Assembly (NCBI GenBank): GCA_945867665.1
Contig: CAMBIR010000002.1
Span: 48,039 to 112,038, forward strand
Direction of reading: 5' to 3'
Source: an uncultured Bacillota bacterium
GTDB taxonomy: Bacteria > Bacillota_I > Bacilli_A > RF39 > UBA660
Length of the DNA stretch: 64,000 nt
The notes below the pieces were generated by a model, which was not told where the DNA came from, made no database searches, and saw only the letters and a program-made list of their open reading frames with translations. Positions 48,474 through 51,493 of this stretch are shown piece by piece (position 1 is the stretch's first letter; the number at the start of each line of letters is the position of its first letter). Made by a program: the position numbers and the translations under genes.

Positions 48474-48502
48474 TTGTATTTTTATTTTATTTTTGTTATA
48501 CT
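48474..48502 (+). promoter_or_regulatory. SigA-type promoter of TasA-like gene 1
   Basis: TTGTAT, 17-nt spacer, TGt-TATACT. The same -10 context and the TAAGGAGGA RBS are repeated upstream of gene 2. Confidence 0.5.
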
Positions 48503-48529
48503 CATTATAGTAAGGAGGAAAGATAAAAG

Positions 48530-49549
48530 ATGAAAGAACAAAAAAATACAGGAAGGGGAATATTTTATGGTGTCATTGGTGTTGCCACATTAGTTGTAGC
48601 AATCATTGGAGCAACATTTGCATACTTTACTGCAACAGCTCAAAATAATAATACAATTACTGGTAACATGGCTACAGTAAGATTAAATTTGTCAGTTAAA
48701 AAAGTTACGACTGCTGATAATGCTGGTGGAATGATTCCAATGACAAATGGAATGATAGAGAAAGCAGTTAATCCTACGACTGCAAAGGCTGATCGAGTTT
48801 GTGTTGATGATAACGGAAACGCTGTTTGTCAAATTTATGAAATTACCTTAACAAATGATTCATCAGCCGGACAGTTTGTTGATGGTTATGTTGCTTTAAA
48901 AGGTGGTTCTGGAACGCCTACTGATTTTACTGCGTATGTAGATGGCGCTAAATTTAATGCTGAAGGTGCTGCTGATAAATCTGGTAGAGGAACTTCTATG
49001 AGATGGGCACAAGTATTTCCAAGTGGTGAAGTATATTCTACTACTGGTACTCAAGTATTAGGTACTGCTGATTCTGAGAAGGTTAGTTTTACTACTGCGT
49101 TAGGTGGTTTAAGTTCAGTACATGCAACTAGTGATATTAAAACAACATTTGATGATGCTACTGATACAACTGCTAAGGGAACAGCAACAATTGCTGGAAA
49201 TACTTATGATATCATTGGTAAAAATTACATTCGTGTAAGTAATCATGCTTGGTCTACTACAGAAGGTGCTGTTGAAAGTTACGATAGAAATAGAGATATT
49301 ACTTCGGCTTTAATATTTAACCATAGTATTGCTCCAAAAGGTGTAGTAAAATATTATTTTGTAGTATGGTTAAGTGAAACTGGTAAAGACCAAACTGCTG
49401 GTTCTACTGAAAAAGGTGGAACAATTGCAAATCATGATGCTGCTTCTTTCTTTAGTGGACAAGTTGCATTCGTATCTGCACAAGGTAGTGAGGTTTCTGC
49501 TACATTCTCTGGCCTAGCAAAAGTTCAATCAGATGCTGTTACTCAATAG
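48530..49549 (+). CDS. Secreted TasA/camelysin-like protein with a SipW-cognate-type signal peptide, paralog 1
   Basis: N-terminus KNTGRGIFYGVIGVATLVVAIIGATFAYFTATAQ carries the G-(A/G)-T-(F/W/Y)-A-x-F-(S/T/N)-x hallmark of TasA/CalY-type signals. It is followed by ITGNMATVRLNL (TasA has FASGTLDL). Gly/Ala/Thr-rich, with the C-terminal strand FFSGQVAFVSAQGSEVSATFSG. Confidence 0.5.
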   Translation: MKEQKNTGRGIFYGVIGVATLVVAIIGATFAYFTATAQNNNTITGNMATVRLNLSVKKVTTADNAGGMIPMTNGMIEKAVNPTTAKADRVCVDDNGNAVCQIYEITLTNDSSAGQFVDGYVALKGGSGTPTDFTAYVDGAKFNAEGAADKSGRGTSMRWAQVFPSGEVYSTTGTQVLGTADSEKVSFTTALGGLSSVHATSDIKTTFDDATDTTAKGTATIAGNTYDIIGKNYIRVSNHAWSTTEGAVESYDRNRDITSALIFNHSIAPKGVVKYYFVVWLSETGKDQTAGSTEKGGTIANHDAASFFSGQVAFVSAQGSEVSATFSGLAKVQSDAVTQ

Positions 49550-49570
49550 TGATGATATAGTTGTAAATGA

Positions 49571-49601
49571 GAAAGAGGTTTATAATTATATTCCTCTTTT
49601 T
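49571..49601 (+). terminator. Rho-independent terminator
   Basis: AAAGAGG...CCTCTTT stem with a 14-nt loop and a T-run. Confidence 0.55.
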
Positions 49602-49645
49602 GCATAAACTAGAGAATATATTTTGAAATACTTATTTAAAAAATC

Positions 49646-49674
49646 TTGCAATTTACTTTGCTTTTTGTTATACT
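49646..49674 (+). promoter_or_regulatory. SigA-type promoter of TasA-like gene 2
   Basis: TTGCAA, 17-nt spacer, TGt-TATACT. Confidence 0.55.
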
Positions 49675-49701
49675 TTGTTTATAGTAAGGAGGAATTAAAT
49701 A

Positions 49702-50700
49702 ATGGAACAAAAAAATAATGGAAGGGGAATATTTTACGGTGTCATTGGTGTTGCAACATTAGTTGTAGCTATTATTGGGGCAACATTTGCATATTTTACT
49801 GCAACAGCTCAAGATAATAATACAATTACTGGTAACATGGCAACTGTAAAATTGAATTTAGCGGTTGAGAAAGTTACTGATGTTGATGCAACAAAAGGTG
49901 GATTAATTCCAATGTCAAATGGGATGGTTGAGTCCGCTGTTAGTAAAAATGAGGTATGTGTTGATGATAACGGAAACGCTGTTTGTCAAATTTACAAAGT
50001 TACAATAACAAATAATTCGTCAGCTGGACAATTTGTTGATGGTTATGTTGCTTTAAAAGGTGGTTCTGGTACTTCAACTGATTATATCTATGCAAAAAAT
50101 ACTGCGACAACAATGAGATGGGCACAAGTATTTCCAAAGGCTGAGGGGGGCAAGTATTCTACTGGTGGTGCGCAAGTGTTGGGTTCTGCTGATGAGAAAG
50201 TTACTCTTGATGTTATTGGTAATTCATCTACTACTGATAGTACTGAGCTTGGCAAACAAGATGCTATGTCTAAGAAAGATATAAGAACTACTTTTGATAA
50301 TAATGCGTCTACTGGTGTTGCAACTACAACAACTATTGCTGGAAGTCCTTATCAAGTTATTGGTAAAAATTATATCCGTGTAAGTGATCATGCATGGGGT
50401 ACAGAAGGTAATGAAAAATTTGATAGAACTGCTGATGTTACTTCTGCTTTAATTTATAATAATAGTATTTCTGCAGGTGGTACTTCAGTTTATTATTTTG
50501 TAGTATGGTTAAGTGAAAATGGTAAGAACCAAACTGCTGAAGCTGCTGAGAATGCTAGTGCTCCAGATACAAAAAATCCAAGTGCTGAAAATTTCTTTAG
50601 TGGTACTGTTGCATTCGTATCTGCACAAGGTAGCGAGGTTTCTGCTACATTCTCTGGATACACTAGGGTTACATCTGATGCTACTACAGCTAATGGTTAA
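49702..50700 (+). CDS. Secreted TasA/camelysin-like protein, paralog 2
   Basis: The N-terminal ~55 aa and C-terminal ~25 aa are nearly identical to paralog 1, and the middle is mosaic. Shared motifs: VCVDDNGNAVCQIY, FVDGYVALKGGSG, MRWAQVF, YYFVVWLSE. Confidence 0.5.
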   Translation: MEQKNNGRGIFYGVIGVATLVVAIIGATFAYFTATAQDNNTITGNMATVKLNLAVEKVTDVDATKGGLIPMSNGMVESAVSKNEVCVDDNGNAVCQIYKVTITNNSSAGQFVDGYVALKGGSGTSTDYIYAKNTATTMRWAQVFPKAEGGKYSTGGAQVLGSADEKVTLDVIGNSSTTDSTELGKQDAMSKKDIRTTFDNNASTGVATTTTIAGSPYQVIGKNYIRVSDHAWGTEGNEKFDRTADVTSALIYNNSISAGGTSVYYFVVWLSENGKNQTAEAAENASAPDTKNPSAENFFSGTVAFVSAQGSEVSATFSGYTRVTSDATTANG

Positions 50701-50709
50701 ATTTTCTAA

Positions 50710-50738
50710 AGGCAATCGTTTTGATTGCTTTTTTTTTG
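50710..50738 (+). terminator. Rho-independent terminator
   Basis: GCAATC-gtttt-GATTGC followed by T9. Confidence 0.6.
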
Positions 50739-50773
50739 TTAATTTGGTAAAATATTTATAGAGAGTAAGAAAG

Positions 50774-51493
50774 GTGGTTTTCTTGAAAAAATTAGATAGA
50801 AAAATGTTTTTTTTTGTAATTGGGTGTGTTACTTTTGCTTTGTTGGTAATTGGGGCTACATATGCTTATTTTACTGCTAGTGCTAATGATAATCGGACAG
50901 TAAAAGGAGATGCCGCTACGGTTAGTTTTGGACTTAATGTTAATCGTATTACCACTATTGATATGGCTTATGGGTTGGTTCCTATGAAAAACAATCAAGC
51001 ACCTAATGCTGCTAGTGATAAATGTTATGATGATTTAGGAAGGGCTGGTTGTCAGTTATATAAAATTACAGTTCATTCGGATAGTGATACAGTTATGTTC
51101 TTAGATGGATATGTCTTTATGACACCAAAGGATGAGCGGTTAGAAACAAGAATTGCTAATGTTTATACAGATGATAAAGAAAATTATTATACTAAATTTA
51201 CTGCAGATGATTTTAAAAAAGATGATTTTGATGAAAGTAATTTTATTAAAACTGGTGTACGAGTTACTGATAGTAATACTTCTCCGAAAAGGACAGAAGA
51301 TTATAACTCTTTAATTGTATCTAATGAAAAAATTGGTGGAGATGCTGGAAGAACAAGAGAATTTTACATTATGGTTTGGGTATATGATAATGGTGAGGCT
51401 CAAGATTATTTGCAAGGAATGCAACTGGCTTATCAGGGAAGTGTTACTTTTATTACTGCAGAAGGAAATGAAATTAGTGCAACATTTGATTAA
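50774..51493 (+). CDS. Secreted TasA/camelysin-like protein, shorter divergent paralog 3 (start GTG 50774 or TTG 50783)
   Basis: Signal FFFVIGCVTFALLVIGATYAYFTASAN. Cys pair CYDDLGRAGCQLY. The C-terminal LAYQGSVTFITAEGNEISATF resembles TasA's YQGNSIKLQFSFEATQ. Confidence 0.5.
   Translation: MVFLKKLDRKMFFFVIGCVTFALLVIGATYAYFTASANDNRTVKGDAATVSFGLNVNRITTIDMAYGLVPMKNNQAPNAASDKCYDDLGRAGCQLYKITVHSDSDTVMFLDGYVFMTPKDERLETRIANVYTDDKENYYTKFTADDFKKDDFDESNFIKTGVRVTDSNTSPKRTEDYNSLIVSNEKIGGDAGRTREFYIMVWVYDNGEAQDYLQGMQLAYQGSVTFITAEGNEISATFD

Follow-up and report, generated by a model that had tools for sequence, protein, structure and literature searches.

Three consecutive paralogous genes on contig CAMBIR010000002.1 of an uncultured Bacillota bacterium (assembly GCA_945867665.1; RF39, UBA660), here called g1, g2 and g3 in their order along the DNA, encode proteins that carry SipW-type export signals and that may assemble into an extracellular polymer (Table 1). 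The window is the whole 64,000-nucleotide stretch that was analysed (positions 48,039 to 112,038 of the contig), and positions are counted from its first nucleotide; L-numbers denote loci in the genomes of relatives. An earlier reading of the sequence alone had described g1, g2 and g3 as a tandem of TasA/camelysin-like genes without sipW or tapA nearby and had proposed a fibre or sheath with major and minor subunits. The tandem itself is borne out by the open reading frames (ORFs), by identities of 36% (g3 versus g1) to 68%, and by a family profile, whose matches to these ORFs reach E = 1e-67 to 1e-78 while the rest of the window stays at E > 0.8. This hidden Markov model (HMM) search found no further family member in the window, and an exact-sequence look-up of g1 returned no record.

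The motifs that the sequence-only reading had picked out are all present in an alignment of the three proteins. IGAT(F/Y)AYFTA, the ITGNMATV or VKGDAATV segment and a common C-terminal motif, G-x-V-x-F-x-[ST]-A-x-G-x-E-[VI]-S-A-T-F, are invariant or nearly so, and each mature protein contains exactly two cysteines, an invariant pair nine residues apart. The longest ORF for g3 opens with a GTG at 50774 and ends at 51493 (239 aa). Judged from sequence context, however, the real start is probably the TTG at 50783, because AAAGGTGG lies 5 nt upstream and homologues are 236 aa long and begin MKK..RKMF.

Table 1. Genes, signal peptides and candidate expression signals of the g1-g3 locus, in window coordinates. 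Terminator z-scores were computed against shuffled sequences.
Feature	Position	Strand	Description
g1	48530..49549	+	339 aa, long (variable) subunit; from ORF list; 68% identical to g2
g1 promoter-like element	48474..48502	+	-35 TTGTAT, 17-nt spacer, extended -10 TGTTATACT; read from sequence
g1 ribosome-binding site	48512..48518	+	AAGGAGG, inside conserved leader TTATAGTAAGGAGGA
g1 signal peptide	48530-48622	+	residues 1-31; predicted cleavage IGATFA↓YFTAT
g1 terminator	49567..49605	+	hairpin and U-run, -12.3 kcal/mol, z = -2.8
g2	49702..50700	+	332 aa, long (variable) subunit; from ORF list
g2 promoter-like element	49646..49674	+	TTGCAA-17-TATACT, TG upstream of -10
g2 ribosome-binding site	49686..49692	+	AAGGAGG; read from sequence
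g2 signal peptide	49702-49791	+	residues 1-30; predicted
g2 terminator	50708..50741	+	AAAGGCAATCG...TGATTGCTTT and T9; -10.2 kcal/mol, z = -5.05; kept in relatives
g3	50783..51493	+	236 aa from probable TTG start, short (conserved) subunit
g3 promoter-like element	50725..50753	+	TTGCTT-17-TGGTAAAAT; kept before short paralogue in syntenic loci
g3 Shine-Dalgarno	50770..50777	+	AAAGGTGG; weaker than in g1 and g2
g3 mature start	50867	+	predicted cleavage IGATYA↓YFTAS
Bidirectional terminator of g3 and convergent radical-SAM gene	51492..51523	.	-12.2 kcal/mol, z = -5.15

The proposed SipW-type signal peptides hold up in a search with the NCBIfam model of the class, TIGR04088 (cognate_SipW), which scores 21.6, 22.5 and 21.4 bits on g1, g2 and g3 against a cutoff of 19. 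The region around the expected cleavage site, LVIGATYAYFTASANDNRT, aligns with LIGGGTFAYFSDSADTNNT of a CalY-type protein at 53% identity, and in the fibre structure 8AUR the mature chain of TasA begins right after the equivalent alanine; cleavage is therefore predicted between IGAT(F/Y)A and YFTA. The poor processing of TasA by ordinary signal peptidase has been reported to stem from an aromatic residue at P2' (PMC10269814). A scan for sortase-pilin sorting signals found neither an LPXTG motif nor a C-terminal hydrophobic run in g1-g3. A further match to the cleavage motif in the window, GSSLAFY at 32959-33918, belongs to a cytoplasmic DHH-type protein and is no SipW substrate.

The same N-terminal segment could in principle behave in other ways. 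If it stayed uncleaved, it would act as the membrane anchor of variable surface proteins of the kind found in Mollicutes-like bacteria. The conservation profile of g2, at least 90% over the first 47 residues, is unusually high for a hydrophobic segment; the window encodes no nearby peptidase; g1-g3 carry neither LPXTG nor another wall anchor; and BsaA oligomers have been reported to be membrane-anchored (PMC11580942). Yet the model that recognises the segment was curated for a class of signals that are cleaved, the residues at -1 and -3 are small, and alignment places the segment on the cleavage sites known for TasA and CalY. High conservation is itself typical of SipW-type signals, TasA/CalY homologues sharing the LGLSLIGGGTWAAFND pattern. 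We consider a retained anchor improbable. A type IV pilin-like protein, with a class III signal cut after GRG by a prepilin peptidase and the helix retained as filament core, would likewise present [KR]-G followed by an extremely conserved hydrophobic stretch of 20 residues, and a true Flp/class III pilin-like gene does occur elsewhere in the window (28171-28380). Against such a filament, Pfam and NCBIfam gave no pilin, N_methyl or Class_IIIsignal match for g1-g3, the glutamate at +5 is missing, the SipW-cognate model passes, and GAT(F/Y)AYF aligns with the CalY cleavage site. The AlphaFold2 (AF2) model of g2 also has no N-terminal helix, residues 1-50 being coil with a predicted local distance difference test score (pLDDT) of 36-44. 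This pilin-like origin is therefore highly improbable.

The proteins belong to a large family. In a collection clustered at 90% identity, g2 has 2631 relatives, none with a Pfam domain or a name, and a profile search of 1.84 billion representatives returned at least 1060 clusters (50% identity) at E <= 1e-3, 677 of them at E <= 1e-10. Look-ups of the clusters gave no names, and nothing on the family was found in the literature on this signal-peptide class. Among species-representative genomes, a scan with g2 alone found no close relative, which implies that the genome behind the window is not part of that set; 335 loci of the family were found there, nearly all in metagenome-assembled genomes (MAGs) labelled uncultured Bacilli, Erysipelotrichaceae, Tenericutes or Mollicutes, and the MAGs come from human (Hadza), goat, deer, sheep and rabbit guts. 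Related SipW loci include those of 'Mycoplasma sp. CAG:877' and Candidatus Faecisoma (NCBI: Mycoplasmatota incertae sedis).

Conservation within the family is concentrated at a few places. Across 164 paralogues, the positions conserved to at least 80% are Y, F and A at the mature N-terminus, a proline, the two cysteines, a glutamine and a G-x-V...G near the C-terminus. The variable regions of g2 (approximately 129-135, 149-152, 161-215 and 281-298), with insertions of up to 68 alignment columns, are loops and insertions. Some family members are fused to DUF285, LRR (leucine-rich repeat) or DUF6273 domains; these fusions look adhesin-like, which suggests a role at the cell surface. Tandem arrays of up to 13 paralogues of about 200-260 aa each were also observed (L049, 928-11315; also L028, L038, L047 and L085). 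Their members have the signal peptide and N-terminal half in common with the family and differ in the remainder, and they suggest that some genomes hold a large variable repertoire.

ORFs mapped in 85 loci reveal a recurring unit, in which one to four long genes (approximately 310-380 aa) are followed by exactly one short gene of the g3 type (approximately 236 aa). More than 20 loci keep this fixed order, usually with the convergent radical-SAM gene next. There is one long gene in L005, L007, L012, L014, L018 and L043, two in the window, L003, L015, L019 and L020, and four in L013; L011 has two long genes, and no short gene was mapped there. The notion of major and minor subunits thus gains support from relatives, where one to four variable long genes accompany one conserved short gene. 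Long paralogues are 60-78% identical within a genome and approximately 45-55% between genomes, a likeness within genomes that indicates repeated local duplication or gene conversion.

The two classes of gene also evolve differently. The short gene tracks phylogeny, with 62-83% identity where RNase J is 87-95% identical, whereas the long genes plateau at 45-60%, near 50%. Comparison with the closest relative, L010, is the clearest case: RNase J is 99% and the upstream neighbour 92% identical to the window, but its long gene shares only 53% identity with g1, as against 90% with a copy in L015. The major gene has therefore been exchanged between lineages. The L010 contig breaks inside the fibre-gene locus (3456-4583, compared with 48530-49549 of the window), and its divergent allele points to strain-level replacement of the major subunit, which probably explains assembly breaks at this locus.

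The expression signals differ between the two classes as well. That each gene is followed by its own terminator, as the sequence-only reading had it, is supported by hairpins with U-runs downstream of all three. Promoters had been assigned to the first two genes only; those of g1 and g2 stand, and g3 proves to have a promoter-like element too, which overlaps the g2 terminator such that the -35 hexamer lies within the terminator's descending arm. The elements of g1 and g2 are homologous, with AAGGAGG after each, so the duplication took the promoter along. Upstream of long paralogues, a TTGCAT-17-TGnTATACT element is kept in 20 loci from divergent MAGs, and this promoter, the leader TTATAGTAAGGAGGA..ATG and the ribosome-binding site are conserved across MAGs in which protein identity is only about 50%. 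Before the short gene there is invariably a conserved terminator, AAAGCAAT...ATTGCTTTTTTTT, that overlaps a weaker promoter; a GGGTGAT-type ribosome-binding site follows the terminator, and the start codon is ATG, TTG or GTG. An Rfam scan for a leader RNA at the locus gave sub-threshold noise only. Since their extended -10 promoter is close to consensus and their AAGGAGG is perfect, g1 and g2 are probably made in large amounts, and g3 probably in smaller amounts because of its upstream terminator, weaker ribosome-binding site and TTG start. We infer from these signals an expression pattern in which the long product would be abundant and the short one scarcer.

The promoter also bears on the idea that these are spore-associated coat or appendage proteins. 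TasA was originally described as spore coat-associated, under the name CotN (PMC9674648), and a syntenic relative has Pfam matches to Spore-coat_CotZ and FtsW/RodA/SpoVE and a sigma-70-family factor within 10 kb. However, the FtsW/RodA/SpoVE family is not sporulation-specific, the conserved TTGCAT-17-TGnTATACT promoter is of the housekeeping type, and the genes around the locus, among them RNase J, fmt and asparagine synthase, serve ordinary housekeeping functions. Labels for the lineage read Mollicutes-like or Bacilli, the loci inspected showed no sporulation operon, and a spore function is very unlikely.

Our preferred reading, which we hold at about even chances, is that g1-g3 form a SipW-processed extracellular polymer with major and minor subunits. 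Each gene would be transcribed from its own promoter, and the proteins would take the Sec route, after which a SipW-type peptidase whose gene lies elsewhere would cut them behind IGAT(F/Y)A. Cleavage would expose the near-invariant segment YFTA..NN.I.G..ATV, which would insert into the beta-sandwich of the next subunit, as in TasA, to build a fibre or surface polymer. The long hypervariable subunits would form the exposed bulk, with the short conserved subunit acting as a TapA-like nucleator, anchor or cap. Support for such a polymer comes from the combination of a mature N-terminus that is the most conserved part of the protein yet disordered in monomer models, the major/minor architecture and the hypervariable loops. 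The donor strand of BsaA looks disordered in monomer models in the same way (PMC11580942).

Two groups of results weigh against this reading, the first concerning the peptidase and the second the mature domain. As the sequence-only reading had stated, neither sipW nor tapA lies near the locus; tblastn and an unfiltered HMM search, covering every frame of the 64 kb window, detected no SipW-type peptidase, and no tapA is present. Its suggestion that the processing enzyme is encoded elsewhere is consistent with what is seen in relatives. Archaeal-type signal peptidases that match TIGR02228 with 72-101 bits (cutoff 51.85) adjoin paralogues in L046, L072, L075, L077, L001 and L017. In the first four of these loci they are stand-alone enzymes of 219-272 aa (86-101 bits), located 90-700 bp downstream of GATFAYF-type paralogues, that carry the SGSM serine and conserved histidine of the archaeal/ER (endoplasmic reticulum) type. 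A 376-aa form of SipW that includes a fused polytopic membrane domain is common across the lineage, and a syntenic relative (L043/L108) has it on the contig of the orthologous locus, some 9 kb away, in a region where the window is rearranged. It is thus reasonable to suppose that a SipW-type peptidase for g1-g3 is encoded elsewhere in the genome.

The fused form, the commonest SipW of the lineage, has another apparent substrate, however, and was set aside as the cognate peptidase of the g family. It has an operon of its own in 80 of 80 loci (L097-L176), comprising one to six copies of a 217-aa family (75 of the 80), the SipW fusion and DUF5305; members of the g family are adjacent in 3 of the 80. 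The 217-aa family is unnamed and secreted-looking, with the N-terminus ...GLSIGFSAFSS... (e.g. L001, 12536-15511, where TIGR02228 scores 72.7 bits), and with the fused SipW it looks like a second SipW-plus-substrate system distinct from the g family.

The second difficulty concerns the description of the mature proteins as TasA/camelysin-like, which the standard family tests do not support. Pfam Peptidase_M73 (PF12389) scores 14.4, 18.0 and 15.9 bits on g1-g3, below its threshold of 22.5, and covers only positions 3-61 of the 196 in the profile. The match disappears for all three proteins once the signal peptide is removed, whereas a mature TasA control scores 84.9 bits, and none of 106 diverse family representatives matches M73 at E <= 1e-3. 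Three family profiles found nothing useful among PDB sequences, and the invariant cysteine pair has no counterpart in TasA.

Structure prediction gives a similar picture. AF2 models g2 as a beta-sandwich (pLDDT 76.5, predicted template modelling score (pTM) 0.75) and mature g3 as an eight-stranded beta-sandwich (pLDDT 81.9, pTM 0.79) in which the first 17-20 mature residues are disordered. For both models, however, TasA (5OF1, 8AUR) is absent from the Foldseek PDB top 50, as are the archaeal TasA-like pilins. The best matches are generic immunoglobulin-like (Ig-like) domains with E = 6e-4 to 1e-2 and TM-scores (template modelling) of at most 0.39, and the matches include FnBPA, SdrD, integrin calf/thigh, factor XIII, RbmA, FixG-C, EcpA and FlaF/G. 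The check for a TasA/CalY fold thus yielded beta-sandwiches, but of a generic Ig-like kind.

Profile comparisons leave a fainter connection to CalY. BLASTP of g3 against the CalY-type protein P0442 gives two collinear high-scoring segment pairs at the protein ends (E = 1e-3 and 2e-3), and hhalign against the same protein gives a probability of 69% (P = 4e-5) over 29 columns, aligning DNGEAQDYLQG with DNGEDQNEFQG. A comparison of the same type with TasA alone gives a probability of 1.4%. The locus scan for TasA had returned 11 near-identical Bacillus genes, too shallow for a profile, and the protein search 62 diverse M73 proteins. When mature parts are compared, a profile of 164 paralogues scores 21.3 (P = 0.021) against 54 M73 proteins, where block shuffles average 13.7 +/- 2.1 and reach 20.8 at most; the g3-type profile is not significant against M73. 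The C-terminal resemblance to TasA that had been noted is thus real, though short. Such alignments may preserve a weak trace of common ancestry with CalY, and superfamily membership is unproven.

These results raise the question of whether the proteins polymerise at all. As monomeric secreted or surface proteins, such as variable adhesins or a surface coat, they would have only the export route in common with TasA and would form no donor-strand polymer. The fold matches to generic Ig-like adhesin domains (FnBPA, SdrD, RbmA, integrin calf/thigh) point in that direction, as does the failure to detect either the TasA fold or M73 membership; the LRR/DUF285 fusions and the 13 paralogues of L049, which resemble a variable surface-antigen repertoire, would also fit. 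On the other hand, all the characterised SipW substrates that are named in the literature consulted, TasA, TapA, CalY and BsaA, are fibre or matrix proteins (PMC10269814, PMC11580942, PMC9674648). A mature N-terminus that is at least 90% conserved though modelled as unstructured is hard to explain for a monomeric adhesin, and the fixed long-then-short gene order suggests a heteromeric assembly. We regard monomeric proteins as rather doubtful, though a serious alternative.

The proteins might instead represent a structurally distinct, non-TasA class of SipW-dependent polymer, in which a disulfide-braced Ig-like subunit polymerises through its invariant N-terminal segment. Such a class would be specific to uncultured Mollicutes-like gut Bacilli, and its major subunit, hypervariable, duplicated and exchanged between strains, would evolve in the manner of flagellins and pilins under pressure from phages or immunity. 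We think this reading as a whole unlikely. Were it true, a widespread gut lineage that is still uncultured may have this polymer as its dominant surface antigen.

Two other features of the window had been drawn into the proposal of a fibre, and neither link is supported. Glycosylation of the subunits had been suggested for the GT-C block, YfhO (5301-7976) and a GtrA-GT2 fusion (7960-9186). The block is approximately 40 kb upstream of the locus and outside the neighbourhood that is conserved in relatives, and nothing ties it to the g genes. We take YfhO with GtrA-GT2 to be typical of teichoic-acid glycosylation. The surrounding segment (3860-11910) has a very low GC content (22-23%) and encodes, besides these two, three large membrane-like ORFs without Pfam matches; it probably represents an island for cell-envelope glycosylation that has nothing to do with the g genes.

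The other feature is a 390-aa tail-anchored protein directly upstream (47228-48400), which had been proposed to organise the fibre. Its N-terminal part is globular, and a long linker rich in Pro, Thr, Ser and Val separates this from a membrane helix at the C-terminus. It belongs to no Pfam or NCBIfam family, evolves fast (39-96% identity in relatives) and is always divergent from RNase J. In the rearranged L022 it stays with RNase J, and the region upstream of the locus lacks it in L013, L019, L020, L024, L011 and L001. With synteny broken in this way, the protein was rejected as a functional partner of the g genes and is better regarded as a neighbour. Just upstream of RNase J, in all syntenic relatives, lies a gene pair (44670-45376 in the window) for proteins of 157 and 77 aa, the larger of which begins in a pilin-like manner, with LKGIVVEIFSLVILLIIAV, and matches no Pfam or NCBIfam family.

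Farther upstream, the window contains an F1-ATPase-like cluster with a non-canonical gene order (22851-28380). It begins with a 254-aa protein without a Pfam domain and an alpha-like subunit (23599-25047), continues with a beta-like subunit that has a V/A-type C-terminal domain (25049-26404) and two small unknown proteins, and closes with a gamma-like subunit (27222-28004) and the 70-aa Flp/class III-signal pilin-like protein already mentioned (MLNRKG↓QTLVEY; PF04021 26.9 bits, cutoff 23.7). In L005 and L006 the same cluster is located approximately 5.7 kb upstream of the fibre-gene locus. The arrangement recalls the extra 'F1-like' ATPase clusters of mycoplasmas. Just upstream of it is a tyrosine recombinase (21570-22442; Phage_integrase with an N-terminal SAM-like domain), which may be XerC/D-like or mark a mobile segment.

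Biofilms of Bacillus and Clostridium have SipW-dependent fibres of the TasA type as their main protein scaffold, a design recently recognised as ancient and common to bacteria and archaea. The export class of g1-g3 is already known, and annotation pipelines would label the proteins 'SipW-dependent-type signal peptide-containing protein'. What is new is a large unnamed family of mature domains with an invariant cysteine pair, nearly restricted to uncultured gut Bacilli and Mollicutes-like MAGs, together with its arrangement of variable long genes and a conserved short one, its strongly conserved expression signals and the allele exchange of its major gene. A large uncultured group of gut Bacilli and Mollicutes-like bacteria thus carries its own highly expanded family with a SipW export signal. 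If fibres do form, they would probably be the principal surface structure and antigen of these cells, and so relevant to gut colonisation and to recognition by phages and the immune system. No Pfam model covers the family; with one, thousands of metagenomic proteins could be better annotated.

Among known SipW-dependent systems, the TasA/TapA/SipW system of B. subtilis (tapA-sipW-tasA; 5OF1, 8AUR) has the TIGR04088 signal class in common with g1-g3, along with a cleavage motif of small residue-T-aromatic-A followed by aromatic-F. The TasA donor strand comprises residues 28-38, the 11 residues right after the SipW site, and completes the beta-sandwich of the next subunit (PMC9674648); the conserved post-cleavage segment of g1-g3 matches this position. 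Further likenesses are a beta-sandwich mature domain, a C-terminal pattern of hydrophobic strand, acidic loop, Q, [YF]-x-G and final strand, and an arrangement of major and minor paralogues, in which TapA has been proposed to supply the first donor strand (PMC9674648). In contrast to the TasA system, the g locus contains no sipW or tapA, and each of its genes has its own promoter and terminator instead of sharing one operon. The mature domain fails M73 and has no HMM or PDB similarity, and the invariant cysteine pair and the large hypervariable insertions of the long subunits are features of the g family.

The closest sequence match is to CalY/camelysin of the Bacillus cereus group and to CalY-type 'TasA family' proteins (e.g. 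P0442, 195 aa, PF12389), which are near in size to the short subunit. GGGTFAYFSDSADTNNT aligns with IGATYAYFTASANDNRT and SDNGEDQNEFQGDAL with YDNGEAQDYLQGMQL, collinearly and at the same ends of the proteins. About 60 residues match in this way, whereas the central 120 or more do not, and the score lies below the family threshold. CalY genes, moreover, adjoin sipW and tasA.

In arrangement, the locus can be compared with sipW-bsaA-bsaB-bsaC of C. perfringens, where BsaA makes long polymers and BsaB does not (PMC11580942). Both have tandem paralogues with SipW signals, no LPXTG and very divergent sequences. Operons with several TasA/BsaA paralogues have been proposed to give heteropolymers, and that extremely divergent family reaches Coprobacillaceae (PMC11580942). 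The bsa operon differs in that it includes sipW, and the g locus has no partner with a von Willebrand factor A (vWA) domain such as BsaC. The donor strand of BsaA is locked by an N-E-K isopeptide triad (donor-strand Asn, acceptor Lys, catalytic Glu). In the g family no K, E or N column reaches 80% conservation across the 164 paralogues, although the long subunits have a near-invariant K57 and E77.

The archaeal bundling pili of Pyrobaculum, built from AbpA, come from hosts in a different domain of life, and no similarity to the g family was detected in sequence or in the Foldseek top 50. They are likewise donor-strand beta-sandwich filaments whose subunits are cleaved by an archaeal-type signal peptidase (PMC9245690). 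By analogy, AbpA shows that a design combining SipW processing with donor-strand assembly can span very divergent sequences.

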